A DNA stretch of 64,000 nt from a virus, in IMG/VR virus record IMGVR_UViG_3300014839_000007; one strand, given 5' to 3'. Every line of letters starts with the position of its first letter. The stretch's first letter is position 1. Below are positions 3,792 through 49,645 of the stretch, piece after piece. A program made the position numbers and the translations under genes. The notes under the pieces are model-generated. The model had not been told where the DNA came from. It was given only the letters and a program-made list of their open reading frames with translations, and ran no database searches.

Positions 3792-5819
3792 TCATTTTTC
3801 TACCAACTTATAAAATCCTCTTCTTGGCTCGTAAATTTTTATTTCTTTTTTTAATTCTTCCAAAAATATTTTTGTATCCCATTCACTTATACTTATTTTT
3901 TCTGCTTCCTCTACTATAGTTCCATACTTAGTTTCTTCTTCAATATTTCCCATTAAGGAATGCAATAATTCTAAAAACCTATCTAACTTTCCTCTCTTAC
4001 TCATTGGAATCCTTTCATTCATTCTAGAAAAGTCATACATTCCTGTTTCTTTATCTTTTACAAGTTGATTAACACAAAACATAAATATTTCTTTTGCTAC
4101 ATTTAAATCTAAAACCTCAACTTTATCACTTAACCTTAATTTAGCATGTGCTTCTGCTAATTTTACAACGGCTTCCATATTTCTTAAATTAACCGGAATA
4201 GTCTTCATATCAGGATTTCCCTTAGACTTTGCTCTAAGTTCAACATAAAATGATTGAACATCACTAACTAAACTATCATCAAGTATTGGCTTTAATTTTC
4301 TACAATAAGTAATGTATTTTTTAAAAAGAGATAATGGGACCTCTGGTTCCATCTTTTCTTTATATGACTTAAAAATATGCTCTACCGCTTTGGAATCAAA
4401 TTTTTCATTTGGTCTGTCTATTAAAATAAATATTAAATCAAATCTATTTAAAATTGGTGTAGGCAAATTAATCTGCTGCGCAAGGGATTGATTTAAATCG
4501 TAATTTCCCATTTTTGGATTTGCTGAAGCTAAAATGCTTGTACTTGCAGGAAGTGTTGCAGAAATGCCAGCCTTATTAATAGTGACTGTAGAACCAGACA
4601 TTGGTTCTAATAATTCTGAAAGATGCTCTGGATACATCTTATCTAATTCATCAAGACATAATGTTGAACCATTTGCAAGTACTAAAGCTCCTATTTCTAG
4701 CGACCATGTATTTGTTAATTCATCTTTAACCGCCATTGCCCCCAAACCTACTTTAGAAGTTTTTGTCCCAACAACCATTTTTGCTCTAGGTGTTCTTGCT
4801 GCTGTAGCTTTTAAAGAAACAGATTTTGCAATACCTACATCACCTGTAATTAAGATATGAATATCTTCTTGAGTATGCGAACCATCACTTCTTTCTTTTC
4901 CTACTCCTTTCACACACTGTAAACAAATTGCTTTTTTTACCATATCATTCCCATATACTTCTGGAACTAAACTTTGTGATAATTTTTCAAGAGGATTATC
5001 TGCTGCAATTTCTTTTATTGTTTGCATATCGTCTTCGGTTATTGTTAAATCGTCTTCAGAATCGCAGGGAATCACATTATTTGCATACATCATAAATTCA
5101 GATAAATTTGAATCCTCATCATTCACACTCATAAATGTAGGTAATTTCTTTATTATCCCAATAACTTCTACACGCCTTCCTGGTTGCAATCTTGAACACA
5201 ACGAACCGTCTGTTAATTCTTCCTCTAAATAAACTCTTAGCTGTTGAGGTTGCTTTCCGTCAAGATTGCCCTGTATCTCTTCTAAATTTAACTCTTGAAT
5301 ATTTTTAACTTCCTCCGATATTGCTGTAAATGTTCCACCTCTTAGTATACTTGCTCCACAAGAACATCTTTTTGGTCCTATTTTCTTTCGACCTTCCTGA
5401 TGAACATTTATCTCTATAGGGCAACTATTACATTTATATTTTATATTTATTGTTCGTGGAATTACCTTAGTTATTCTCTTAATAATTCCTTTTATATTAA
5501 AAATCTCATCAATATTATTTGCTCTTATATTATGAATATCTATATATCTATCATAATTCGTAAGTGCTATATGTGCATTCTTAGTCAGACCAGTATTATT
5601 GAGCGCTTGCTCCATTGCTCCTAATACCTTTTCAGGATTTAACAAAAATTCATCTGCAAGTTTATTAGAAAATTCTTTAACTTTTGTAAAATCAAGTGTC
5701 ATTACATTTGTTCTTTTACGCAAACAATCTCCTAAATCTTCTTTATTATAATTAAAAAAGTTTGCCGCTTCCATCAACAAATCCTCTTCTTCTTTTGGTG
5801 AAGGATTATTTTTTATCAT
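3792..5819 (-). CDS. mcm: MCM-family replicative helicase
   Basis: N-terminal C4 zinc finger (CNSCP...CSCG). Walker A ILITGDVGIAKS, Walker B CLDELDKM and arginine finger SILASANP match the MCM motifs GDPGxAKSQ, IDEFDKM and SVLAAANP. Confidence 0.85.
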   Translation of the reverse strand: MIKNNPSPKEEEDLLMEAANFFNYNKEDLGDCLRKRTNVMTLDFTKVKEFSNKLADEFLLNPEKVLGAMEQALNNTGLTKNAHIALTNYDRYIDIHNIRANNIDEIFNIKGIIKRITKVIPRTINIKYKCNSCPIEINVHQEGRKKIGPKRCSCGASILRGGTFTAISEEVKNIQELNLEEIQGNLDGKQPQQLRVYLEEELTDGSLCSRLQPGRRVEVIGIIKKLPTFMSVNDEDSNLSEFMMYANNVIPCDSEDDLTITEDDMQTIKEIAADNPLEKLSQSLVPEVYGNDMVKKAICLQCVKGVGKERSDGSHTQEDIHILITGDVGIAKSVSLKATAARTPRAKMVVGTKTSKVGLGAMAVKDELTNTWSLEIGALVLANGSTLCLDELDKMYPEHLSELLEPMSGSTVTINKAGISATLPASTSILASANPKMGNYDLNQSLAQQINLPTPILNRFDLIFILIDRPNEKFDSKAVEHIFKSYKEKMEPEVPLSLFKKYITYCRKLKPILDDSLVSDVQSFYVELRAKSKGNPDMKTIPVNLRNMEAVVKLAEAHAKLRLSDKVEVLDLNVAKEIFMFCVNQLVKDKETGMYDFSRMNERIPMSKRGKLDRFLELLHSLMGNIEEETKYGTIVEEAEKISISEWDTKIFLEELKKEIKIYEPRRGFYKLVEK

Positions 5820-6369: not shown

Positions 6370-7359
6370 TCATATTTTTACACTCCATATTTTTTCTGAA
6401 TTATTCCTTCCACCTTTATAAAATTCTAATAATCCAAATTTACATAAATCAGACAAAAATCCCATTGACTTATTTATCCCAATATCTAACTTCTGCTTTA
6501 AAACATTTGTTAGTTCTGTTTGATTTGTAGATGTTCCTTTAAAGTCCTCCAGTAGTATTTTCATTATTGCTTTATATAATATCTTCCTCTTTGGATTTTC
6601 TTCCCTATCATTAATGATTTTATCCATATACTCCTCTTTTAAAATTGTATTAGCCTCTTTGGCATTTACTGACTCTTTATGCATATACTGGTCTGTGAGA
6701 ACTTTTGAAGCACAAATTATATTTCTTGGTATGCCTCTTGAATATTTAAAAACTATTTTATAAACTTCCTCATCAAAAAAATTCTCTGTGTCTGCCATTT
6801 TCAATCTAGAACTTATTAACCAATTACTTTCTTCTTCATTCATACTATCTAATCTAACTCTAAGAAATTTATTTAATATTTCTGAAACATTCAAAGAGCG
6901 GTTATAATGGGAAATATTACAAGCAAAAATGAAACTAATATTATTTCCGTTTGGAGATTTCATTAAATTCCAACAGTAGTCTAAAAACTTTTTAAAATTT
7001 ATAGCATTAATTGTATCTGGAAAATCAACTAAGACATACATTGGTTTCTTTGATACTTCTGAAAGTTTGACATCTGCTTGATTATTAAAATCCTCTTCAT
7101 CTATAAACATCCTATCAAATAAAAAGACATTACACCCTGCCTCGCTTAACATATCATAAATATAATATAGTGAAGTTGATTTTCCAATTCCAGGAACACC
7201 TAATAATAATATTCTGTCTGCAAATCTAAAACTATCTCTTATTTGATTATTAATCATATTCTTTATTTGACTTATGCTCTTACTCTCTAAACAAGGAAAA
7301 TCTTTAAATTGCTGATAGTCCGTCATTCCGAATATATTGAAGGGATTAAATGAAAGCAT
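6370..7359 (-). CDS. P-loop AAA+ ATPase, Orc1/Cdc6-like (initiator candidate)
   Basis: Walker A LLLGVPGIGKST and Walker B-like YVLVDFPD. C-terminal winged-helix-like tail. Sits directly downstream of MCM. Confidence 0.45.
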   Translation of the reverse strand: MLSFNPFNIFGMTDYQQFKDFPCLESKSISQIKNMINNQIRDSFRFADRILLLGVPGIGKSTSLYYIYDMLSEAGCNVFLFDRMFIDEEDFNNQADVKLSEVSKKPMYVLVDFPDTINAINFKKFLDYCWNLMKSPNGNNISFIFACNISHYNRSLNVSEILNKFLRVRLDSMNEEESNWLISSRLKMADTENFFDEEVYKIVFKYSRGIPRNIICASKVLTDQYMHKESVNAKEANTILKEEYMDKIINDREENPKRKILYKAIMKILLEDFKGTSTNQTELTNVLKQKLDIGINKSMGFLSDLCKFGLLEFYKGGRNNSEKIWSVKI

Positions 7360-7608
7360 TTTTTACCTCTTTGTTATATTCCTTTTTATGAATAAACTTT
7401 TTCATTTCCTCTTTTGTTACCCTCTTATTTTCTAAAAGCCAATCCCCAAATAAACTAAACTCTCTCTGTTGCATTTTCTTTAGTCTATTTGATTTACCAA
7501 TTAAAGCACATGTTTTTCTTACTCTATTCAAATCTTTACTTATCTCAGAAACTTCATGCTTATACTTCTCTGCTTCTCTCCTTAATTTTATTTCTTCATC
7601 TGGTTTAT

Positions 7609-8085
7609 TCATATTTTTTCCTCCAACATTTCAAAGAACAATTTAAGATTATTTTCAAATTTTTCAGACAATACGTCTAATGTCTTTTTGTCTGGAGAAA
7701 ACTCTTCTCTACATTTATTGCTTGTCTTTATCCAAATATTTAATATTTCAGTATAAAAATTATTAATTAATTCTTTATCTAATTTAGAGATATTATCCTT
7801 ATGCAATAATTTATGCTTTACTTTTGGTACGCTAACAAGAACATCTGCAGTTTCAAAAACAAATGGATTTTGATAGTTTGTATTTAAGTAAGGACATTTA
7901 TTACATTTAAAAACGGTTCCTTCTACTTTTGTATCTTCTGATTTACATATGGGACATTTTATCTTAGTTTTTCCTATTTTATTAATTTCATTAATTTGCC
8001 AATCTGGATTTTGCTCAGCCAAATTCTTTGTTATTTGATTTAAGGCTTGACCAAGCTCTTTCTTTGTTATCTTTTTTGTTTTCAT
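7609..8085 (-). CDS. Zn-ribbon protein
   Basis: CPICKSEDTKVEGTVFKCNKCPY. Confidence 0.35.
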   Translation of the reverse strand: MKTKKITKKELGQALNQITKNLAEQNPDWQINEINKIGKTKIKCPICKSEDTKVEGTVFKCNKCPYLNTNYQNPFVFETADVLVSVPKVKHKLLHKDNISKLDKELINNFYTEILNIWIKTSNKCREEFSPDKKTLDVLSEKFENNLKLFFEMLEEKI

Positions 8086-8094
8086 TATTTCTCC

Positions 8095-8640
8095 TTATTC
8101 TAATAAAACTGCAACAGCAATTGTTGTTGTCCAAAGCCCACATTTATCCCCTTCACAGGATTGACATATTGACGTTGTCTTAAAAATTTGCCCAGATGCC
8201 TTGTAAACATCTTCCCTTTCTTCCCAGGCGGTATCAGGATTAAATTCAATTCCTAAAGTTGTTGCTAACATTGTCGCAGCTAAATCCTCAGCATAATCCC
8301 CTGCTTTTTTTGCTGTTTCTCCAAAAGTGTGGTGTTCTGACAAATAACCATACTGCTTATCATTTTCTTTTGGGACGGCTATACCAATTGCGGAAGCCAT
8401 TAATCTATTTGGTTCATTGGACTGTATCCTTGCCATTACACAAAAAGTAATCTGTCCTGGACTTAATTTTTTTAATCCTTCTTCCCTAGATATTATTTTA
8501 CAATTTGGAGGTAATATTGACGAAACATATACAAGATTGCACTTTTCAATTCCAGCATCTCTTAGTGCAAGTTCGAACGAACTTAATTTGTCTTTATGAA
8601 TTCCCACCCCTTTTGTTAAGAATAAATTAGTTGGTACCAT
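8095..8640 (-). CDS. pdaD: pyruvoyl-dependent arginine decarboxylase (PvlArgDC)
   Basis: Matches archaeal PdaD in length and the self-cleavage region (VYVSSILPP vs NLIRISSIMPP in M. jannaschii). Size is about 180 aa. Confidence 0.8.
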
Positions 8641-10249: not shown

Positions 10250-11134
10250 TTATTTACTTGCCTTTGCCTTTATCGGAATTTCCCCCAAAATTAATTGAGG
10301 ATTAATTCCATCTTTTGTTAAGACAATCTTCGTGTTATTTTCCAAAGAAGCTTGAGTAACTTCTAATCTTTTCAATGTTATAGCATTGTCAACGAATGAT
10401 TTATTTATTAAATCAAATGCTTTAGCTTGTCCCTCTGCTGTTAAAATTCTTGCTAATTTATCTCCTTCTGCTCTTAAGATTTGTGCTTGTTTTTCTCCAT
10501 CAGCCTCTTTTATTGCAGCCCTTCTTTTACCATCAGCTTGTGTTTCATTAGCCGTAGCTAAATCCAATGCAGCATCCTTGGTATTTTGTGCCTTAATAAC
10601 ATTATTCATTGTTGCTTGAACATCTGCAGGAGGAATAATTTCTTTAAGTTCTACTTTAAGAACCCTAACACCCCAATCTTTAGTTTCTATAGATAATATG
10701 CTTTGAAGTTTATCATTGAGTATCTTTCTTTCACTATTTACTTCTTTGAAGAGCATAGTACCAATTACATTCCTTGCAGTTGTTCTTGCTAAAGTATCTA
10801 ACTGAGAATATACATCTTTAACTTCATACATTACATTATAAAGATTAGCTTTGTCCTTATCTATCTTAAAGTAAACAACTAAATCAACATTTGCATTAAG
10901 ATTATCTTTTGTAATAATCTCTTGTGGTTCTATATGTGTCATTTGTTCAGTAACATTAATTAATATTAATCTCTGAAATATAGGAAGCACATAATTAAGT
11001 CCTGGTTCTCTTATTCCAGAAAATTTTCCAAGAGTTTCTACAACTCCTCTGCTGTTTGGTCTAATTGTTCTTATTCCAGAAAGAAAATAAATCACCAAAA
11101 TAACTAAAATTGCATATAATATATATTCTATCAT
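10250..11134 (-). CDS. SPFH/band-7 (stomatin/prohibitin-like) membrane protein
   Basis: N-terminal TM helix, then a typical band-7 core (RGVVETLGKFSGIREPGLNYVLPIFQRL...DNLNANVDLVVYFKI) and an Ala/Gln-rich coiled-coil tail. Confidence 0.8.
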   Translation of the reverse strand: MIEYILYAILVILVIYFLSGIRTIRPNSRGVVETLGKFSGIREPGLNYVLPIFQRLILINVTEQMTHIEPQEIITKDNLNANVDLVVYFKIDKDKANLYNVMYEVKDVYSQLDTLARTTARNVIGTMLFKEVNSERKILNDKLQSILSIETKDWGVRVLKVELKEIIPPADVQATMNNVIKAQNTKDAALDLATANETQADGKRRAAIKEADGEKQAQILRAEGDKLARILTAEGQAKAFDLINKSFVDNAITLKRLEVTQASLENNTKIVLTKDGINPQLILGEIPIKAKASK

Positions 11135-11367
11135 TGTACAAGTTTACAACCACAATTTTCACAAATCTTATCTGCTAAATAAGCTTTTATTGTGGTTCCT
11201 TTTGGGATATCATAAGAGTATTCATCTTCACAATTCCCACATGCAATATTCATACTGTATGTTTCATCTTCGTCAGAATCTTCCTCTTCTTCTTCCTCTT
11301 CTTCGTCGTCTTCTTTCTCAGAACGTTTGTCTAAATCGTCTTTATCTTTTTTACCAAATAATCCCAT
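11131..11367 (-). CDS. acidic Zn-ribbon protein co-transcribed with the SPFH gene
   Basis: Poly-Glu/Asp tract, CGNCED...CENCGC. ATGA overlap with the SPFH gene. Confidence 0.45.
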   Translation of the reverse strand: MGLFGKKDKDDLDKRSEKEDDEEEEEEEEDSDEDETYSMNIACGNCEDEYSYDIPKGTTIKAYLADKICENCGCKLVQ

Positions 11368-18706: not shown

Positions 18707-19654
18707 TCACTTCCCCTTTTTTAAATAGTTAGATATCTTTATTACTGCATCTATCAATTCCTTCTTTTGAGATTTAGAAATTCCCTTTAAGTTCCATTGC
18801 TTTCTTATTCTGTTATAGAAAGTTTCTATATCAAAAAGATAAGTATCAAATTCAGAATGCGTATCTTCTATTTCATTTGACTTATTAAGTTCTTCGAATG
18901 TTTTTGCCTTTGCTATCGCTTTCTTTTGTTTATTAGTTTTAGTTTTATCAGCTTCAAGTTTCCTAAACATATGGGTCATCTTTCTTGGAAGTAATGCTCC
19001 TGGACTTTTTCCTGTCTTTTTATGATGCTCAACTACAGCTTCTTTCATACCACTCCTTATACTTTCATCTCTTGAAGCATGTTTTATCTCTGAAATAATG
19101 TATGGGCTTTTTCCTTCCATAGCCATCTTTTTCAATCCTTTATCTTTTTCAGTTACTATATCATTTGCCATATCAAAATATGCCGATGAATATCCAGTTA
19201 ACTGAGAAAGTCTTTTTACAATATTTCCTTTTTTTCCTTCTTTTTTCCAGGTCTTAGCATATCTCTCAATAGCCTTAGCCATTTCAGTTACACTTATATG
19301 TACTCTTTTTGAGCCTACCCTAAACTGAGTTTCATAAACATCCAATTCAGAAAGTTCAGGTCTAATTTCTGCATCTATTTTATCCCAGCCCAAAAAGTCT
19401 TTAGCAGCTAAGATTCTTCTATATCCATCTATTACAAACCATCTAGAATTTTTATTTTTGACTGCATCCTTTCCAATGACTAAAGAGCCATCTGGTTTTT
19501 TATAATGATACGTTAAAATAATTGGGACAATTTGTCCTGCTTCTTCCATATCATCAGCTAAATCCTGCATCTTGTCATGTTCAATAGTTTGCCTTGGTTG
19601 TGAAGTATCTAAATCAATATCTTTTATTAGCACCTCTTTTATTATTCTTTTCAT
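18707..19654 (-). CDS. ParB-like nuclease (ParB/Srx N-terminal) domain protein
   Basis: QIVPIILTY...FVIDGYRRILAAKDFL matches the ParB N-terminal GxxR box. Long basic C-terminal extension. Confidence 0.6.
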   Translation of the reverse strand: MKRIIKEVLIKDIDLDTSQPRQTIEHDKMQDLADDMEEAGQIVPIILTYHYKKPDGSLVIGKDAVKNKNSRWFVIDGYRRILAAKDFLGWDKIDAEIRPELSELDVYETQFRVGSKRVHISVTEMAKAIERYAKTWKKEGKKGNIVKRLSQLTGYSSAYFDMANDIVTEKDKGLKKMAMEGKSPYIISEIKHASRDESIRSGMKEAVVEHHKKTGKSPGALLPRKMTHMFRKLEADKTKTNKQKKAIAKAKTFEELNKSNEIEDTHSEFDTYLFDIETFYNRIRKQWNLKGISKSQKKELIDAVIKISNYLKKGK

Positions 19655-20214: not shown

Positions 20215-20808
20215 TCACCTAGTTTGATTTTTTATCTTATTCGCTATAATTCTAACATCTTTTCTTTTAAGATTATTTTTAAATGCATCTTGTAAAATCT
20301 TTAATCTCACCTCTTTTTTCAAACCCTTCGTTTCCGAAATAATTGTAGGGCTCAGAGTTTTAAGTTCATCAGGCAATTTTAATTCATTTCTGTCAAGTGC
20401 TTGTGTAACACTTTGGATACTAACTTTAAGCTTTTTAGCTATATCATTTACACCCATTCCTTCTTTTTTCATTTTAGCAATCTCTTCATCTCTATCATAA
20501 ATATAATTCTTACTTATTTTAATACTGTTGAAACCATTTTTTAAATTCAATTTTTTCTCCTGCAGTTCCGATTGAAGTTTTATTGAATTAAGGATAACAT
20601 TAGTATCTCTATTACCCTTAGACATCTCTGTCAAAACAAGCTTGGATAAATCCCTTTGAAGGGCAGAATATAAATCTTCTGAATCTTCAACCAAATCTTT
20701 TGATTTAAGGACTACCTCTTTTATATCAACATTTAAAATTTTTGCTATATCTTCTTTATTAAACCCCTTTACAAAAAGTTCTCTAACCTTTGATTTATCG
20801 ACACTCAT
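20215..20808 (-). CDS. DNA-binding protein with two HTH motifs (small-terminase-like or regulator)
   Basis: EDIAKILNVDIKEV and VNDIAKKLKVSIQSVTQAL. Confidence 0.35.
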   Translation of the reverse strand: MSVDKSKVRELFVKGFNKEDIAKILNVDIKEVVLKSKDLVEDSEDLYSALQRDLSKLVLTEMSKGNRDTNVILNSIKLQSELQEKKLNLKNGFNSIKISKNYIYDRDEEIAKMKKEGMGVNDIAKKLKVSIQSVTQALDRNELKLPDELKTLSPTIISETKGLKKEVRLKILQDAFKNNLKRKDVRIIANKIKNQTR

Positions 20809-22076
20809 TTTTTCCAGGCTCCATTATACTTGTAGATTATATCCCCATTTTTATCAACTCCGGAAGGAATTAAAGCCTTATCAAAATACTTGTAGGGAGA
20901 ATGTCCACAGTTTGGTTTATTCCACGCATTCCTCATATATTCATACATGCTAAAGTCTTGTTTCTTTAACCTATTGTGATTCCCACCAGTATTAAATCCA
21001 CTTGCCTTACACCATTTGAAACTTTTAAGCCATTTAAAATCTTCCGAGATATCACTAAATTTAACTTGCCCTTTTTTTCTAGCAATAACAATCGCATTAG
21101 TGAATTGACTTTTTTGATAATTTGATAATGTAGGGTGATTGTCAGGAAGTCCGCAGCAACTACCAGTGCAGGATAATTCTTTGTGATGAGCATCAGATAC
21201 ATGCAATCTTAAACCGTATTTTTCACAAGCTTCCTTGATTGGTTTTAAATATTTCATTTTTAAATTATAATTTAATCTTAGATAACCACTTCCCTTGCTT
21301 AATTTTTTGTAATATGCAATTATGTCGAATCCACACAATTGGCTAATTTTTTTAAACTTTTCTTTAGTTAATTTATTTGCTCTCATTTCAAGACAAAAAA
21401 ATTCAGCACTAACAGATTTTACACCTGCCTTCGCAGCGAGTTCAATTAATTTAACACAATCCAAGTTAGTTATCCCTATAATTATAGGTCGAAGTCTCAA
21501 AGTTGTTTCTACTCCAGCATCAGAAAGTTTTTTCAGGACCTCCAATCTTCTTTTTGGAGAAGGAGCCCCAGCTTCCAGAACTTTTGCTATTTTTTCATTG
21601 AGAGTAATTATAGAGCATTTGTAATGATAATTTTCTTTATTCCTCATAAAGGCATCCCAGTACTTTTTATTCCTAAGAAGCAAGTCCGATTTTGAACTAA
21701 AGCTAATTGGATATTTTATATCACTTAAAAAATTCAGCACCTTTAATCCAACACCCAATTCTTCTTCTATAGGACAGAAAGGGTCACTTAAACCACCCCA
21801 TTGCATAGGTTTCCTGTTTCTTGTTATGTAAGCAAATTGCCCCTTATATTTTTTGCTAAACAATTTTTTAAATTTTTCAAAATTAATTGCTTTTATTTGT
21901 TGTTTCTTCCAATAATCTTTTGAGCCAAGACCAATACCTCTTTGAAAGGTACTAAAACAATACAAGCACGAAAATCCACAGTTATTATACTGGTCGAAAG
22001 TCATGGGCATACTACAGTCTAAAATTTCTCCAGTTATTCTTGGTGATTGATATTCTTCTTTACTTAGTTCTACCAT
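20805..22076 (-). CDS. radical SAM domain protein (SplB/DNA-repair-photolyase-like CxxxCxxC)
   Basis: CGFSCLYCF near the N-terminus is the canonical CX3CX2C cluster. About 420 aa. Further Cys-rich region CTGSCCGLPDNHP. Confidence 0.55.
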   Translation of the reverse strand: MVELSKEEYQSPRITGEILDCSMPMTFDQYNNCGFSCLYCFSTFQRGIGLGSKDYWKKQQIKAINFEKFKKLFSKKYKGQFAYITRNRKPMQWGGLSDPFCPIEEELGVGLKVLNFLSDIKYPISFSSKSDLLLRNKKYWDAFMRNKENYHYKCSIITLNEKIAKVLEAGAPSPKRRLEVLKKLSDAGVETTLRLRPIIIGITNLDCVKLIELAAKAGVKSVSAEFFCLEMRANKLTKEKFKKISQLCGFDIIAYYKKLSKGSGYLRLNYNLKMKYLKPIKEACEKYGLRLHVSDAHHKELSCTGSCCGLPDNHPTLSNYQKSQFTNAIVIARKKGQVKFSDISEDFKWLKSFKWCKASGFNTGGNHNRLKKQDFSMYEYMRNAWNKPNCGHSPYKYFDKALIPSGVDKNGDIIYKYNGAWKK

Positions 22077-22722
22077 TTTTTGTAGCCAGCTTTACAGCTT
22101 TTTTGAATTTAAAAAATTCTTTATCATCCGAAGTAAGGGGGTTTAACAAATCACCATTAAATTTTATTTTATTTTTTTTTCCAGCAGCAGCAACATTTTT
22201 CAACTTTTTTATATCGTGGTTAGCAGTCCCGCCAAAGTATTGATGCAATGCAGTATACTCTTTTTTAGGAATATAAAATGATAGTGGAATTCTTTCTTCA
22301 CCAATCTTCCCCACAATCTCCTGTTTTTCATAGTCCCCTTTCCCAATTGAGAAATCTCCCATTGCTGTATACTCAGCTTGAGAGAAACCAGTATATTCTA
22401 AATTATCAAATGAACCAAGAATAGAACTTAGTTTTTCATAGTCCCATTCACCACTTATTCTATTTAGAGCCAAGTTTAATTTTTTCTCATTAACTTCGTC
22501 TAAGTCTACATACAAAACAGGGAGTTCTTTAAAGTCGAGTTCTTTCGCCGCCCGAACAGTTTGGTGCCCAGAAATTAACACCTTGTTTTTTTTATTAATA
22601 ATTAGTGGTCGAACACAACCATATTTTTTTAAACTCTTTTTTAAGTTTTCGAATTCTGCATTGTTCATCAACCTTGGATTATACTTTGCAGGATTAACTT
22701 CTGATATCTTAATAATCTCCAT
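22060..22722 (-). CDS. ParB-like nuclease domain protein
   Basis: KYNPRLMNNAEFENLKKSLKKYGCVRPLIIN...ISGHQTVRAAKEL matches ParB N-domain motifs (PR, GHHRxRAA). Confidence 0.55.
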   Translation of the reverse strand: MEIIKISEVNPAKYNPRLMNNAEFENLKKSLKKYGCVRPLIINKKNKVLISGHQTVRAAKELDFKELPVLYVDLDEVNEKKLNLALNRISGEWDYEKLSSILGSFDNLEYTGFSQAEYTAMGDFSIGKGDYEKQEIVGKIGEERIPLSFYIPKKEYTALHQYFGGTANHDIKKLKNVAAAGKKNKIKFNGDLLNPLTSDDKEFFKFKKAVKLATKNGRTK

Positions 22723-36723: not shown

Positions 36724-37200
36724 TTAATCTAATTTATGTTCTATTTTATTTACATACTGATAAATTCCACAAATACCTGTGTATTCTGTTTTATCATAAT
36801 CTACAATTTTATTCAAATTCTCCGTAGATAGATATTTCTTAAATCTCTCTTTATACACAAAGCTAACTCCTATGTAAATCCTATCATTAATTTTTTTAAG
36901 ATATTCATTAAGTCTTTTGAACCATTCTATAATACATCCTTCACGAACTCTCTCAAATCTTCTCTGAGATTGTCCACCCTGCCTTTGCTTATTAGGTATA
37001 GTAGAATGAATATCAAAAATCTTTTCTATTCCGCCATCAGTAAAAACATTCGCACAATAAGCTTCTTGTAAATCCAAGACCAATATTGTGTATTTTATTT
37101 TTCTGTCGGTATCTAACTTCAATAGTTCTTTTCCACAATGGTATTTCTTTTCTTTTCTCTCGTAGGGAACTATTGTTAAATCATCGTCATCCCAATACAT
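36724..37200 (-). CDS. stand-alone release-factor aRF1/eRF1 domain-2-like protein with GGQ motif
   Basis: IPNKQRQGGQSQRRFERVREGCIIEWFKRLNE aligns to the aRF1/eRF1 GGQ loop and helix (eRF1: [28 protein letters not shown]). Flanking ILVLDLQEAY matches eRF1 FIVIDGSGALF. Only about 158 aa, so no N or C domains. Confidence 0.6.
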   Translation of the reverse strand: MYWDDDDLTIVPYERKEKKYHCGKELLKLDTDRKIKYTILVLDLQEAYCANVFTDGGIEKIFDIHSTIPNKQRQGGQSQRRFERVREGCIIEWFKRLNEYLKKINDRIYIGVSFVYKERFKKYLSTENLNKIVDYDKTEYTGICGIYQYVNKIEHKLD

Positions 37201-37427
37201 AGAGATACCTGTTTCCTTGGTAGAACTAAAGATATTGCTGAATTTTATTCAAGCCTTCAAGTGTAGACCTACGAGTATTCTTATCTCTAATATTCTTTGC
37301 AGAGCTAATTTCCTCGTTAAGGTTAAAGCTACTACTATCTTTTGGTATATGTAATGTTATCATTTTTATTGCCTCGTTGAATATGCCCAAACACGAATAC
37401 TATATTCGTGCGTGGGAAAACGGATTA

Positions 37428-37562
37428 TTACTTATATGTTATCTCTGGACTTTTCTTCCAAGCTGGTTTTCCACACTTGTTACAATTTAGAGGATTAACT
37501 CCATACCATTCTTGTGGTATAGTTTCTGCTCCACAATGTGGACATTTATTTTTTCTTTCCAT
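37428..37562 (-). CDS. tiny Zn-ribbon protein (about 44 aa)
   Basis: Hand-translated as MERKNKCPHCGAETIPQEWYGVNPLNCNKCGKPAWKKSPEIT. Confidence 0.3.
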   Translation of the reverse strand: MERKNKCPHCGAETIPQEWYGVNPLNCNKCGKPAWKKSPEITYK

Positions 37563-38386
37563 TTTTTATTTACTATTATCCTCATCCTTGACATTCGGTA
37601 AATACAGAGTGTCAGAATTGTCTACTCCTGTCTCCTGTAACTGAGGATTATTAATTATTTCCATTTGTTATCCTTTTATATTTTTTATTAGCATTAATAG
37701 GAACGAAAAGCGACAACATTTCATCCTGTTAAGCCTTCCATAATAATATCCTTTTTTATCTTACTAACCTCTTCTTCACCAAGGAGTATTATAAACCTTA
37801 CCATACACCTACAACATATATTTACAGTATGGCTTTGCCTAAAACTAGCCTTAGCATCCCTAAAATATTTTTCCCCTTTATTTATCTTGCCGCCACAACA
37901 AACGCACATATATCTATTACCTTCGGCAGTGAATATTTTATCAAATTTATCTATCATAAAGTATTTGCAATCAATTGCTTACCGAATTTAGTCTTTATAT
38001 CCTCTAAAAACAATTCATATTTTTCTAAAATTTCTTTTTCATTTTTTAGATAATTTATCAAATGCAATTTAAGTTCTGGATAGACCTGTTCTATAAGGAA
38101 CTTATCAACCAGTTTTTGGTCTATCATATTAATACCAAAATTCCTTCTATATTCGTGAGAATCTGATGTATCCATATATAAATTGGCATGCCCCTGTTTT
38201 AAAATTATAGAATTTATATTAATACTCTTTTTACTCAATTCTTCATCTCCTACCCAATCTTCATCTTCATTATTTATGATATTTTCATTATACACTTTCC
38301 AGGGGGTAGTTAAAATTGCCCTATAATCTTCTTTAACATTAAGGGTTTTAACATTCTCTAAAAAATTAGAAAATGTTAATTTTTTC

Positions 38387-43063: not shown

Positions 43064-43639
43064 CTAAAAAAATTCCACCCTTATTTCTTTTATCCTTCCT
43101 GTTTCCTTTTCTATTTTAGCAATAACAGGATAACAGCCATCTCCATATCCAGATTGTGTAACCACCCCAACTCCAGGATGTCCCATCTTATAATTCAATT
43201 GTCCACTATTCTTCATACTTGCCTTACAACAAGCATTATAAGAAAAATTGCTCTTTGCTTTTTCTTTTCCCATAGTATATTCTTCGTGTTCCCATTCACT
43301 ATCAATATAACAGGGGTCACATATGAGTATTTGTCCAGCGTCTACACCAACAACACCTATTTCTTTTTCTTCATAAGTTCCAATTACACCTTCTTCTCCA
43401 ACTAACTTCTTTTTAATTTTCGCTATTTCTTTTCTTTCCATTTTAACCTCCTTATGATAATTTCCAAACCAAACCTTAGTGAAGTATAGTATACTGTATA
43501 GCAGTAAATCCCACTCCACCTTAACTATAAATTTGTTTAAATTCAAGGCATCCGCAATAGACACCATCATTTTTGTGTCCACAACCAATTCTTTCATCAC
43601 CTTCCATTTTATGAATGTGCTCTTCTTTTGTATGTCCAC
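43064..43639 (-). CDS. hypothetical Cys-rich protein
   Basis: GVDAGQILICDPCY...GVVTQSGYGDGCYPV. Confidence 0.35.
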   Translation of the reverse strand: MDIQKKSTFIKWKVMKELVVDTKMMVSIADALNLNKFIVKVEWDLLLYSILYFTKVWFGNYHKEVKMERKEIAKIKKKLVGEEGVIGTYEEKEIGVVGVDAGQILICDPCYIDSEWEHEEYTMGKEKAKSNFSYNACCKASMKNSGQLNYKMGHPGVGVVTQSGYGDGCYPVIAKIEKETGRIKEIRVEFF

Positions 43640-43650
43640 AATTACAGATT

Positions 43651-44904
43651 TTATTCCCCATATTCTCCCTTTAGCCTTATAACTTTATTCCTATTTTTAT
43701 CTTTAATACAATCATCCCTTCCATTTTGTTGAATAACAAATATCTTTTTGAAATGGTAATCATCCAATTTTATATTTTCTAAATCAGAATATCCATCTGT
43801 TAAAAATATAGCTAATTTAGCATTCTTAACTTTATTCTGAATGTAATCCATAATATCCTTATGACTTGTTCCCCCACCACCATCTATCTTTAATTTTCTA
43901 ATCTTGTCAACATTTCCATTTTCAACAACATAATCATTATGAACAGTTACATCATGAGTTAAGAACCTTATAGTTATTCTATTTCTGAAAGCCTGTGCCA
44001 TACCAATTACTTCACTAGCAAAATCAGCATATTCCTTAAGACCAATACTTCCAGAAACATCAATTCCTACAACTACATTAATCATTTCTTTAGAAACATC
44101 AGGCATAAAATACCCAGTTGAAAAGCTTGATTTGAATGGTTTCGCATAAGAATAATCATAAGGCAATACATTCTGAACTTCTTTCAATAAGATGGTTCTC
44201 CAATTTACTTCACTTTTGTGAATTTTATCAATAAGCCTTTCTATACCTGCTGGAACCTTTCCTGCTTGTTGTGCTGTAACATAAGCATCAGTTAATCTTT
44301 CTTTCCACTCTTTTTCCAATTCTCTTTGCTCTTGTTCAGATAATTCTTCACCAGTTTCATAATTATGAAAATCAAATCCCCCCTTTCCATCTGGAGTTAC
44401 AAGAACACCTTTACCTTTACCCTTACCACCCTTCCCATTTCCAAATCCACCCTTTATCTTAAATTCATCATATATAATCTCAGGAGTTTTTTTATCAACA
44501 TTAGTTATTTTTTGTCCAAAAACTTCAATACAATGATTATAATCTGTTTCCAAGCAGCCATCTGGAAGTTTAAATCCATTTTGTTTAAGAATAAAATTTA
44601 CAACAATATCGCAGGCAATATTCCAGTATTCCATTTTTCTTTGCCCCAATCTAAGCAAATGAAGAAAACTCAAATGAAGTATCTCATGAACTATCACACC
44701 CCTTAATTCTTCATCAGTTATCTTATCCACAAATTCTTTTCTATAAACACAATCACCCCTTGAATTTACTCCCATACCTGCGTAGTCTGGAAGTTCATTT
44801 TTTCTTGCTTCGTGAAACTTCAAATAAAGTGATAAATAAGCAAAAAAAGGATTTTCTGCTTGTATCAATATTTTCGCTTTTCTAATTTTTTCTATTGCTT
44901 CCAT
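43651..44904 (-). CDS. VWA-domain protein with N-terminal HExxH metallopeptidase-like domain
   Basis: HEILH zinc-binding motif in the N-terminal half. MIDAS motif VVGIDVSGS in the C-terminal half. A Gly/Lys-rich linker (GNGKGGKGKGKG) joins them. Confidence 0.6.
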   Translation of the reverse strand: MEAIEKIRKAKILIQAENPFFAYLSLYLKFHEARKNELPDYAGMGVNSRGDCVYRKEFVDKITDEELRGVIVHEILHLSFLHLLRLGQRKMEYWNIACDIVVNFILKQNGFKLPDGCLETDYNHCIEVFGQKITNVDKKTPEIIYDEFKIKGGFGNGKGGKGKGKGVLVTPDGKGGFDFHNYETGEELSEQEQRELEKEWKERLTDAYVTAQQAGKVPAGIERLIDKIHKSEVNWRTILLKEVQNVLPYDYSYAKPFKSSFSTGYFMPDVSKEMINVVVGIDVSGSIGLKEYADFASEVIGMAQAFRNRITIRFLTHDVTVHNDYVVENGNVDKIRKLKIDGGGGTSHKDIMDYIQNKVKNAKLAIFLTDGYSDLENIKLDDYHFKKIFVIQQNGRDDCIKDKNRNKVIRLKGEYGE

Positions 44905-48499: not shown

Positions 48500-49645
48500 T
48501 TAACAAAGATATTTGCTATATTTAGTTATAAGTTCGTCATCCTGTTCTAACTTATCAACAAAATCTTTCTTAAAGCTCTTTGATAAACCGCTGCACATCT
48601 TCCACAAATAAGCAACCAATTCAACATCACCAATATCATCCATAACCCTGCTGAATTCTATAACCTTTTCAAACTTCACTTTCTTATCTTTATATTGTTC
48701 AGCCAAAGCAGTATTAATAAACCATTTTACGTTTATCTCTTTTATATCTTTTAACTTCTTTGGATTAGCAATTATATCTGGAAGTTTAATCTGTTCACTT
48801 ATCTTACAGAAAGACACAAACTCCTGTGCTACACCTTCACCAATCGCACTCTTTGCCATAGAATCTAGTTTCTTATATCCCTTCTCAATTGGATTATTCA
48901 TCATAAGGCAATTAATCCTCTCCCAACCTCTCGGGGTTGTGAATTTTTGGTTATCATTAAAATCTACCTTATGAAGAGATGCTGTTTTAAAGCTAAGAAA
49001 CCCTATAATCAAAGGACTAATTCCCTTTGGTATAGCAAAGTTATCAATCCATTTTTGTGTAGATGGTGTTCTCAATTTAACTTCACCAAATCTATCCCTT
49101 AAAGGTGGAGCCATATCGTAAACATAAGCTCTATCTTCATCAGTATTACCTGCCCCCATAATCAACCAGTCACCCCCAACTTTACTATCATTAACAATCC
49201 TATCGTGGATTATTTTATAGCACGAGCTTTGAATAAGCGGTGGAGCCAAGGTTATTTCATCAAAAAATAGAATACCATCAGCTTTTTGATTTTCCAATAA
49301 CTTCACAAAGAATGGAACTCTCCATACAAGCCATTCCTTAAACTTTTCCATAGCCTGTAATTCTGGCAAACCCTTAATATCACTAGCATCAAATTCACTA
49401 AGTCTTATATCAAGAAGAATAAAATACTTTTCAGGATTAGCAAACACTTTCATTTTATCCTCTAACAAAAGTTTATTCCAATTAACATATTCTTTCTCTT
49501 TTTCTTTTGCTATGCCCTTTGCCTGTTCTTCAACACTTTGAGATTTACCAATACCAAATGTTCCATAAACCATCAGTGGCAATTTACTATTGTAATAGCA
49601 CCTTATCAATTCACTAAGTTCTTCATGTTCTATTTCGTAAACCAT
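48500..49645 (-). CDS. AAA+ ATPase of the AAA_5/MoxR-like class
   Basis: Walker A GTFGIGKS, Walker B ILFFDEI, and sensor/arginine region LIMGAGN...PPLRDRF (MoxR/McrB/CbbQ-type LxDRF). Confidence 0.6.
   Translation of the reverse strand: MVYEIEHEELSELIRCYYNSKLPLMVYGTFGIGKSQSVEEQAKGIAKEKEKEYVNWNKLLLEDKMKVFANPEKYFILLDIRLSEFDASDIKGLPELQAMEKFKEWLVWRVPFFVKLLENQKADGILFFDEITLAPPLIQSSCYKIIHDRIVNDSKVGGDWLIMGAGNTDEDRAYVYDMAPPLRDRFGEVKLRTPSTQKWIDNFAIPKGISPLIIGFLSFKTASLHKVDFNDNQKFTTPRGWERINCLMMNNPIEKGYKKLDSMAKSAIGEGVAQEFVSFCKISEQIKLPDIIANPKKLKDIKEINVKWFINTALAEQYKDKKVKFEKVIEFSRVMDDIGDVELVAYLWKMCSGLSKSFKKDFVDKLEQDDELITKYSKYLC

Follow-up and report, generated by a model that had tools for sequence, protein, structure and literature searches.

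A candidate +1 frameshift in the gene for a miniature aRF1-type release factor of a predicted virus

Release factor 2 (RF2) of Escherichia coli is the classic example of a termination factor that regulates its own synthesis by slipping at CUU before a stop codon, the +1 site of its gene, prfB, reading TAT CTT TGA C. A comparable device was described in giant viruses by Jeudy et al. (2012; PMC3521657): the eRF1-type factors Mimivirus R726 and Megavirus mg280 need both readthrough of a UGA and a +1 shift, at CUU UAG C or CUU UAA C, and these sites, which have experimental support, were interpreted as RF2-like autoregulation. Here we analyze 64,000 nucleotides of IMG/VR virus record IMGVR_UViG_3300014839_000007 (the whole stretch is called 'the window' below), in which two small reading frames on the minus strand are very probably one gene in two frames, joined at TAT CTT TAG and encoding a release factor of the archaeal type, aRF1.

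Cellular aRF1 (TIGR03676; structures 4af1 and 3agk) is a protein of about 410-420 residues with a helix α1, a GTS loop and a C domain for aEF1α. Truncated forms of eRF1 have been characterized. When the C domain is removed, eRF1 is still active as a release factor in vitro, in a simplified assay (PMC2909394). In isoform 2 of human eRF1, residues 1-33 are missing, and with them helix α1 and the GTS loop. This isoform binds pre-termination complexes, is weak in release and is biased towards UGA, a bias explained by the contact that T32, a residue in the GTS loop, makes with the third purine in UAG and UAA (PMC11277123). The stand-alone aeRF1 M-domain families (acVLRF1, baeRF, Vms1/VLRF1; PMC6514570) are short proteins with the same catalytic fold that act outside canonical termination.

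Neither frameshifting nor viral versions are mentioned by Burroughs and Aravind (2019; PMC6514570), who defined the stand-alone families, and a 2021 review of archaeal recoding (PMC8211752) lists few frameshifts from archaea or archaeal viruses and none in a release factor. In the literature searched, we found no description of a miniature aRF1 family or of an archaeal release-factor frameshift.

A probable release-factor gene in two frames

The downstream part of the gene contains a 158-residue open reading frame (ORF) at 36724..37200 (minus strand, ATG to TAA), which an earlier reading of the letters alone, hereafter the sequence-only reading, had taken for a stand-alone protein matching the peptidyl-tRNA-hydrolysis domain (M domain) of aRF1/eRF1. 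The ORF and its catalytic loop are as that reading had them: the loop reads ...NKQRQGGQSQRRFERVREG..., the same as the quoted KQRQGGQSQRRFERVREG, and a codon check places GGQ, the catalytic motif for peptidyl-tRNA hydrolysis, at 36970..36978 (minus strand; G129, G130 and Q131 of the fused product described below). The domain match was borne out by both the profile search and the structure prediction with superposition that had been proposed as checks. Pfam eRF1_2 (PF03464) matches with an expectation (E) value of 2.6e-11 and 44.4 bits, over profile positions 1-131 of 133 and against a gathering cutoff of 27.1 bits. TIGR03676, the NCBIfam equivalog model for aRF1, gives a partial match over model positions 102-263 (E = 9e-19) whose 67.5 bits do not reach the equivalog cutoff of 234.7 bits. 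The solved aRF1 structure 3agk is matched at E = 1e-5, and the top Foldseek matches of an AlphaFold model of the ORF are aRF1 4af1 and the M domain of human eRF1, 2hst (E about 1e-7, TM score 0.58-0.69). The ORF thus has the eRF1_2 domain with GGQ loop of a class-I release factor and is a genuine homologue of the aRF1/eRF1 M domain; neither profile nor fold comparison led to an unrelated fold with a coincidental GGQ, which the sequence-only reading had named as its possible refutation.

Models of stand-alone M domains stayed below threshold: PF18859 (acVLRF1) with 25.0 bits against 27.1, PF18854 with 12.8 against 27.1 and NF041024 with 13.8 against 125. Pelota/Dom34 has an aeRF1-like fold without GGQ and an Sm-like N domain. 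We rejected this identity, given the GGQ motif, a sub-threshold score for the Pelota model TIGR00111 (17.5 against a cutoff of 177.65) and the placement of Pelota structures below eRF1/aRF1 in both fold searches, with the 158-residue model and with the fused one.

Upstream of the GGQ ORF lies a shorter one, ORF1, at 37226..37363 (minus strand; 45 codons and a TAG, MITLHIPKDSSSFNLNEEISSAKNIRDKNTRRSTLEGLNKIQQYL). They are separated by 25 nucleotides, the GGQ ORF being in the +1 frame with respect to ORF1. As judged from an N-terminus profile, phmmer alignment and the ratio of nonsynonymous to synonymous substitution rates (dN/dS), ORF1 corresponds to the first strand and the helices of the aRF1 N-domain core, and its start coincides with the end of the GTS loop in aRF1/eRF1. 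Its N-I-R codons at 37286..37294 (minus strand, coordinates checked; N24, I25 and R26 of the fused product) are the counterpart of N61-I62-K63 in the NIKS stop-codon-recognition motif of eRF1, a position at which relatives have NIK[DSN], and E18 upstream of them corresponds to eRF1 E55 (E-x3-A-K-N-I-R-D).

The junction reads CAG CAA TAT CTT TAG TTC and contains the proposed +1 frameshift site, TAT CTT TAG T (37225..37234, minus strand), which is conserved in 11 further distinct relatives. TAT at 37234-37232 would stand in the E site and CTT at 37231-37229 in the P site, followed by the zero-frame TAG at 37228-37226 and T at 37225. The sequence TATCTTTAG is found only once on the coding strand of the window. 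As a heptamer, the site is of one type with that of E. coli prfB (TAT CTT TGA C) and that of Mimivirus (CUU UAG C; PMC3521657). The +1 frame is open from six codons before CTT, and after a slip it would be read as AGT TCT ACC AAG GAA ACA GGT ATC TCT ATG TAT TGG... The part in this frame, of which the 158-residue ORF is the ATG-delimited subset, occupies 36724..37227 (minus strand; 167 codons and a TAA, SSTKETGISMYWDDDDL...GGQ...KIEHKLD) and, by alignment and codon check, comprises a bridge of 9 residues, the final strands of the N domain and the M domain in full. Among these strands is YHCGKEL at 37123..37143 (minus strand, coordinates checked; Y74-L80 of the fused product), the equivalent of the YxCxxxF motif (Y125, C127, F131) with which eRF1 reads the purines of stop codons. 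With a short zero-frame ORF, a stop right after CUU U and the remainder in the +1 frame, the locus has the layout of prfB and R726.

A one-base slip at CTT_T would yield a 212-residue product in which ...NKIQQYL is followed directly by SSTKETGISMYWDDDDL... This fusion is collinear from end to end, with no notable gaps, with the relatives P0009, P0018 and P0025, which have a single ORF; P0009 reads ...IIQQYISKNRNHTGLSFYWNDEKL... across the junction region. We also considered a slip on AAA-A, six codons farther upstream, and discarded it, as the uninterrupted relatives keep to the frame of ORF1 through IQQY[LI]. In phmmer, residues 2-151 of the fusion align to residues 35-207 of 4af1, an aRF1 of the Halobacterium type, pairing VTIYIPPD with ITLHIPKD, EASNIKSKQTR with SSAKNIRDKNTR and YHCDSAF with YHCGKEL. 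A profile built only from the N termini of 15 uninterrupted relatives, when compared with every one of the 926 fragments from a six-frame translation of the window, had ORF1 as its sole match (E = 3e-17), with an alignment that ends at the last codon before TAG. The values of dN/dS are 0.16-0.44 in ORF1, 0.08-0.37 in the bridge together with the rest of the N domain, and 0.07-0.33 in the M domain. Both ORFs are under purifying selection and, since dN/dS is well below 1 on both sides of the break, a pseudogene is excluded.

The fused product is predicted to fold as one N+M unit. Its model has a predicted local distance difference test (pLDDT) score of 94.5, a predicted TM score (pTM) of 0.71 and no disordered segment. 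For the 158-residue ORF alone, pLDDT is 77.4 and falls below 50 in the first 30 residues, which are the final N-domain strands including YHCGKEL; the two models were built from alignments of different depth, which makes this comparison supportive and not decisive. Foldseek aligns the fused model to aRF1 4af1 over about 240 columns of the N and M domains (E = 1e-11), and the best fit is to ribosome-bound, accommodated eRF1 (3jag, TMq 0.76; 8ip8, 0.75; 6xa1, 0.73), with poorer fits, 0.48-0.55, to free or eRF3-bound eRF1. Although Pfam eRF1_1 gives no match to the product at E<0.01, E18...A22-K-N-I-R-D27 and Y74-H-C-G-K-E-L80 align to 'EASNIKS' and 'YHCDSAF' of 4af1; an N domain with both NIKS-type and YxCxxxF-type motifs is obtained only if the +1 fusion is accepted. 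In an alignment of 32 family members, G-G-Q-S..R....R is invariant, the NIK and YxC motifs are nearly so, and Y74, C76 and G77 are at least 90% conserved.

Cellular aRF1 is the best match of the product in both sequence and fold: E/NIK, YxCxxx[FL] and GGQ are common to the two, and the N and M domains superpose. What sets it apart is the absence of helix α1, the GTS loop and the C domain. The product starts right after the GTS position, as does every member of the family (MITLHIP, compared with G-T-S-MISLIIP in human eRF1 and xTxLVTIYIP-type sequences in aRF1), and it ends 84 residues past GGQ, compared with about 239 in cellular aRF1; the C-domain model eRF1_3, for the part that binds aEF1α/eRF3 and ABCE1, gives no match. 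It therefore unites the two eRF1 truncations introduced above, with a start equivalent to human Met34 (MISLIIP versus MITLHIP) and an end after the M domain. Those truncations are known from laboratory constructs or from a minor isoform of reduced activity and UGA bias; the viral form belongs to a naturally selected, conserved family. It also differs from the stand-alone aeRF1 families, which have no stop-reading N domain. On sequence and modelled fold, we regard the product as a 'mini-aRF1', made up of an N-domain core with the stop-reading elements and a complete GGQ M domain. The sequence-only reading was right that the C domain is missing; its view of the protein as a stand-alone one without an N domain gives way to ORF1, the conserved CTT TAG +1 site and the N-domain core (E-x3-A-K-N-I-R-D and YHCGKEL) carried by ORF1 and residues 1-30 of the GGQ ORF. 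The ribosome rescue that it proposed, a role that would not depend on a stop codon, appears less likely than stop-dependent release, because that N-domain core with its stop-reading motifs is present by way of a conserved shift site.

Candidate recoding sites in the mini-aRF1 family

Homologues in viral genomes, which the sequence-only reading had suggested looking for, do exist in IMG/VR and in metagenomes, one of them (L007) next to large terminase and portal genes. A tblastn search of the 158-residue ORF against the GenBank phage collection and a single-protein search against IMG/VR returned nothing, and a word-indexed protein search gave only six close relatives. An exhaustive profile search of 1.8 billion representative proteins was needed to reveal the family: among 354 relatives, 51 of them at E<1e-10, the best ones are short, and no full-length aRF1 ranks before about E = 1e-11. 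In several short relatives, the N terminus is extended by about 55 residues, 'M(K)ITLHIPK...AKNIKD...GL..I..', which are nearly identical to ORF1 of the window. We took the DNA of relatives from protein look-ups, IMG/VR and metagenomes, the last scanned with a tight alignment of 12 sequences.

Twelve distinct sequences, with 33%-69% identity to the window product where measured, share the +1 arrangement at the same protein position. The site reads CAA/CAG TAT CTT TAG T/C in the window, L002, L003, L004, L008, L024a and L025, TAT CTT TAA C in L024b, TAC CTT TAG C in L026, TCT CTT TAG C in L027, TAT ATT TAG T in L028 and TGG GCC TAG T in L029. CTT is the P-site codon of nine of the 11 site types listed, ATT that of one and GCC that of one (L024 contributing two CTT copies). 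A shift site conserved in diverged homologues thus coincides with purifying selection on both parts of the gene. Another 26 representatives appear as 'ORF2 only', and at least seven of these open with [I/V/T/F]-F-S, the +1-frame reading of NTT TAG. The bridge is conserved at the protein level upstream of the ATG that opens the 158-residue ORF in the window; at the position of this ATG, the relatives have M, L, F, I or V, and L004 and L008 carry TTA, which is no start codon.

The recoding stop is TAG in 11 of the 12 sequences and TAA in one, and the base that follows is always C or T (TAG-C six times, TAG-T five times, TAA-C once). The genuine stops of the same genes are TAA-A (six), TAA-T (four), TAG-A (one) and TAA-G (one). 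Of the 163 stops in the window, 101 are TAA, 50 are TGA and 12, the smallest number, are TAG; TAG-C does not occur. The recoding stop therefore has a rare or weak context and the genuine stop a common or strong one. R726 is similar in that a rare tetranucleotide serves for recoding and a common one for genuine termination.

Four other members have an in-frame stop in an otherwise continuous gene, at three different positions, followed by C in each case (TAG-C three times, TGA-C once): a TAG at the conserved Glu of LxxEPY in L007 (nucleotide 10193), a TAG at one and the same position in the two diverged sequences L032 (nucleotide 4259) and L033 (nucleotide 317), and a TGA in the M domain of L031 (nucleotide 3030). 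Uninterrupted relatives are L006, L034 and 11 cluster representatives. As a control, we inspected cellular aRF1 loci in species-representative archaeal genomes: 79 of 80 have no interruption, and the other one is truncated where its contig ends. The cellular-type aRF1 loci returned by the metagenome scan are likewise uninterrupted. Recoding, by +1 shift or in-frame stop, thus appears to be the rule in the mini family and is specific to it. A genome-wide reassignment of TAG was rejected for the window (coding coverage 0.85 with the standard code, 0.86 with TAG as sense) and for L007 (0.82 and 0.84); TGA reassignment was likewise tested and rejected for both, and the test was equivocal for L031. 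A DNA pattern for the junction with variable gap gave 45 loci, of which only the known L008 encodes a family member by hidden Markov model (HMM), the others being chance matches. A scan of 185,579 species genomes returned cellular aRF1 only and no member of the family.

How does this arrangement relate to the giant-virus factors, both of whose published sites we recovered, in contigs L023 and L022? In all of them, the N domain of a viral eRF1/aRF1-type factor is interrupted and a +1 shift occurs, or would occur, on CUU-stop. R726, however, is a full three-domain protein of a eukaryote-infecting giant virus, whereas the window factor has two domains, 212 residues and a prokaryote-style genome around it. 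It scores up to 62 bits with cellular aRF1 compared with 30 bits with the Megavirus-type protein, and its shift lies about seven residues before the 'NGL' strand, compared with about 22 after it in the Mimivirus type, that is, about 30 residues earlier in the N domain. Since the factor is nearer to cellular aRF1 and the shift position differs, the window arrangement is probably an independent invention. A different aRF1/eRF1-like lineage, represented by L015 (IMGVR_UViG_3300027769_001643, nucleotides 4199-4214), is split about eight residues after the same strand by CAG TAT CTT TGA C, whose last ten letters are identical to the E. coli prfB shift site; this lineage keeps a 'PTS' loop resembling GTS and a longer C-terminal part.

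The resemblance to prfB itself includes the short first ORF ending in CUU and a stop, UAU in the E site, the potential slip of tRNA-Leu to UUU, a presence in some homologues and not in others, and, in the interpretation given below, negative feedback through termination efficiency. The two also differ: RF2 is structurally unrelated to the window factor except for GGQ, its recoding stop is UGA, the codon specific to RF2, whereas the window family has UAG in 11 of 12, and prfB needs a Shine-Dalgarno (SD)-like stimulator 3 nucleotides upstream, of which none was found at the window site.

Other observations concern variation within and around the family. L024 (SDBS01154291.1) has tandem frameshifted mini-aRF1 copies (GGQ at nucleotides 303 and 1681) with very similar products; one copy has CTT TAG C and the other CTT TAA C at the site, and they may be paralogues tuned to different stop codons. 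Members of about 150-165 residues that end 31-39 residues past GGQ (L006, L008, L034, P0042, P0049, P0075 and P0076) consist of the N-domain core and the first half of the M domain only. Finally, IMG/VR contigs of 68-156 kb (L009, L010, L011 and L019) carry uninterrupted aRF1-like genes of about 325-340 residues with variant NIKS regions, such as 'VQNIKSR' and 'VDNIKSR'. As these are large predicted viral contigs, virus-encoded aRF1-type factors do not seem to be limited to the mini family or to giant viruses.

Proposed function, host and alternatives

By analogy with the established prfB mechanism, we propose the following course of events. Translation would start at the ATG at 37363 and proceed over 45 codons to CUU (37231-37229), bringing UAG in a weak context (UAG-U) into the A site. 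Termination there would give a 45-residue peptide. Alternatively, peptidyl-tRNA-Leu(GAG) would slip from CUU to UUU, one base downstream (G·U, A-U and G·U pairs), decoding would resume at AGU, and continuation in the +1 frame to 36724 would yield the 212-residue mini-aRF1. High termination activity would thus favour the peptide and low activity the factor, a negative feedback like that of RF2. In the ATT variant, re-pairing would be possible at two of three positions. The product would be a GTPase-independent class-I release factor, member of a virus- or mobile-element-borne family, that acts at stop codons on the ribosomes of the host, most likely an archaeon, during infection, and presumably to the benefit of the virus; its synthesis, like that of RF2, would be set by the efficiency of termination at the shift-site stop. 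Taken as a whole, the proposal of an autoregulated, stop-dependent release factor made by a +1 shift is the one we favour, with moderate confidence.

Several observations weigh against it. None of the 12 sequences has a G-rich, SD-like element within 20 nucleotides upstream of the site, and a conserved RNA structure downstream was sought and not found; the signal thus appears to be the heptamer and its context. The GCC TAG site of L029 is not slippery and would need a mechanism independent of P-site slippage, such as the out-of-frame binding of the incoming tRNA seen with Ty3 or the occlusion of the first A-site base proposed for antizyme. In the window, L002 and L003, an ATG in the +1 frame follows a purine-rich or SD-like sequence (AAGGAAACAGG before the ATG at 37200 of the window; AAGGAG or GGAGGT, the latter in L003, 7-8 nucleotides before the ATG of the other two), and some independent initiation of the 158-residue form is conceivable. 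A close relative, L001/P0006 (Ga0172381_10152278, nucleotides 205-615; 60% identical), has the M domain only, with a TTG start, neither N part nor YxC strand, and an unrelated gene upstream. It is either a true stand-alone form or a decaying copy, and its sequence indicates that M-domain-only forms exist in the family. Lastly, the GTS loop is absent while the recoding stops are mostly UAG, which is not what the eRF1 model predicts for a UAG sensor. The codon specificity of a factor without GTS cannot be predicted from that model. The predominance of UAG sits uneasily with a simple self-feedback, and the shift may be governed by how active the aRF1 of the host is, or be simply constitutive.

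The same predominance (UAG in 14 of the 16 recoding stops in the family) suggests a bolder idea, which we put forward as a speculation with a small chance of being right: the stop specificity of this naturally minimized, GTPase-independent factor might have narrowed to UAG or UAR, making it an analogue of RF1 on the archaeal fold. It would then impose or restore termination at a codon that the host terminates poorly or reads as sense, and would be self-limited by a convergent RF2-style shift. Pyrrolysine-using or otherwise UAG-ambiguous archaea are examples of such hosts.

Alternatively, the 212-residue protein may well be made and yet serve as an A-site tool against host translation, competing with aRF1 or aPelota, blocking or rescuing ribosomes that host defence nucleases have stalled, or contributing to shut-off, with the stop codon merely fixing a low production ratio. 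The missing helix α1, GTS loop and C domain fit this idea, since such losses weaken release and uncouple the GTPase in human eRF1 (PMC11277123), as do the absence of any stimulator for regulated shifting, the presence of bacterial aeRF1 homologues such as the hibernation factor Balon among the fold matches, and the tRNA repair genes, for an RNA ligase and a CCA-adding-type enzyme, that neighbour the L029 copy. We nevertheless hold it to be unlikely. The invariant GGQS..R....R and near-invariant NIK and YxC motifs point to catalysis at stop codons, and the recurrence of recoding stops in independent layouts (the +1 shift, and in-frame TAG or TGA at three positions) is hard to explain without self-sensing.

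Slightly less credible is the division of the locus into two independent genes, a 158-residue GGQ protein translated from its own ATG for stop-independent rescue in the manner of ArfB or Vms1, and a separate small protein of 45 residues. The start contexts just described, L001 and the weak, sub-threshold acVLRF1 match speak for it. The 45-residue ORF, however, is recognized by an independent profile as exactly the N-domain core that is missing, the first 30 residues of the 158-residue ORF are N-domain strands that are modelled poorly without it, and the ATG is not conserved. Moreover, the break is always +1 and at a stop codon, preceded by NNT (GCC in L029), and the stop-reading motifs are conserved.

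The preferred reading, that of a stop-dependent factor, also involves an assignment of the host. The window is probably, in our estimation with good confidence, a virus or virus-like element of an archaeon. In the phage collection, its full MCM helicase has relatives in archaeal viruses only, those that infect methanogens, Altiarchaeum and haloarchaea; cellular aRF1 is what the factor resembles most; and the genes are SD-led and overlapping, with a 14-fold enrichment of GGAGG before start codons and overlaps of 4 or 1 nucleotides in 29 of 133 pairs of neighbours. These last two features mark the genome as prokaryote-type, and on them we rejected a giant-virus origin, raised by the 'GVMAG' label of L008. 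A bacterial host, with the protein as a baeRF-type member acting on 70S ribosomes, seems very improbable. Weak matches to baeRF_family10 and acVLRF1 and strong SD usage could be cited for it, as could a DUF2201/MoxR-ATPase pair in the window, the ATPase having relatives in bacteriophages, and the nucleotidyltransferase next to the L029 copy, whose class II PolyA_pol/CCA type, usual in bacteria and eukaryotes, also counts against an archaeal host. The best matches are by far cellular archaeal aRF1 (TIGR03676, and up to 62 bits), baeRF and acVLRF1 scores being sub-threshold; the MCM helicase matches archaeal viruses only in the phage collection; and a pyruvoyl-dependent arginine decarboxylase in the window and an archaeal-type S-adenosylmethionine (SAM) synthetase next to the copy in L028 argue in the same direction. 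As for SD sequences, many archaea use them too.

A decaying pseudogene or an assembly or sequencing error, single-base frame breaks being the commonest assembly error and the family being known only from metagenomes, is effectively refuted by the recurrence of the break in 12 distinct sequences, which come from various samples and assemblers and each have it at a stop codon, by dN/dS well below 1 on both sides, by a longest homopolymer of just TTT at the site and by the frameshift in both tandem L024 copies.

Genomic setting and significance

All predicted genes of the window are on one strand, with a GC content of 29%, a coding density of about 90% and no family match for most ORFs. No second release-factor-like gene, no tRNA or tmRNA gene and no Rfam family was found in the window; without a tRNA gene there, no suppressor tRNA accompanies the mini-aRF1. 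The sequence-only reading had noted an ORF-poor gap at 37201-37700 beside the GGQ ORF: about 150 nucleotides of it are indeed intergenic, while the rest holds ORF1, a 44-residue zinc-ribbon ORF (CPHCG...CNKCG; 37428-37562, minus strand) and an inverted repeat. The repeat (37386..37416; arms CCCAAACACGAATA and TATTCGTGCGTGGG of 14 nucleotides, 3-nucleotide spacer, 86% complementary) is located between the zinc-ribbon ORF and ORF1, 23 nucleotides upstream of the start of the latter, and may be a terminator or an operator.

Further genes of the window encode an ATP-dependent DNA ligase, a GT2 glycosyltransferase and an SPFH protein. Two ParB N-terminal-domain proteins (18707-19654 and 22060-22722, minus strand) flank a radical SAM enzyme (20805-22076, minus strand) and a helix-turn-helix (HTH) protein (20215-20808). 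At 43064-44904 and 48500-49645 (minus strand) are a DUF4241 protein, a DUF2201 metallopeptidase/VWA protein and a MoxR-like AAA ATPase; unlike the MCM helicase, the ATPase has relatives in many bacteriophages (772 records). Judged by such matches, the gene content is of mixed ancestry.

The pyruvoyl-dependent arginine decarboxylase is encoded at 8095-8640 (minus strand; PF01862, E = 7e-61). This enzyme makes agmatine, which archaea need to produce polyamines and hypusine and to modify tRNA-Ile2, the decoder of AUA, with agmatidine. In the window genes, ATA accounts for 46% of Ile codons (701 of 1527). The decarboxylase may be a second translation-supporting gene of the same virus. In L029, the RNA ligase (PF09414, nucleotides 7252-7950) and the PolyA_pol/CCA-adding-type nucleotidyltransferase with HD domain (nucleotides 10317-11360, minus strand) lie 1-4 kb from the frameshifted mini-aRF1, which may be a sign that this virus has a module for translation and tRNA repair.

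Because standard gene callers split the locus, the family sits in databases as anonymous ORFs of 45 and roughly 150 residues. As a natural N+M factor of 212 residues, about half the size of aRF1, the protein would be a tool for dissecting the roles of helix α1, the GTS loop and the C domain, and a mini-aRF1 might find uses in cell-free translation and genetic-code engineering. The giant-virus precedent lessens the surprise of a frameshifted viral release factor; what gives it interest is the apparent convergence, the extreme miniaturization and the link to archaeal-type translation. The 'stop after CUU' device of RF2 would have been reinvented on the unrelated release-factor fold of archaea and eukaryotes, and it is present in at least two groups, giant viruses and prokaryote-type ones, each with its own position in the gene, which argues strongly for convergent translational control. 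If the narrowed-specificity idea were true, no earlier regulatory +1 frameshift and no earlier virus-encoded termination factor would be on record for archaeal translation. More generally, the mini-aRF1 family points to archaeal viruses that interfere with translation termination.

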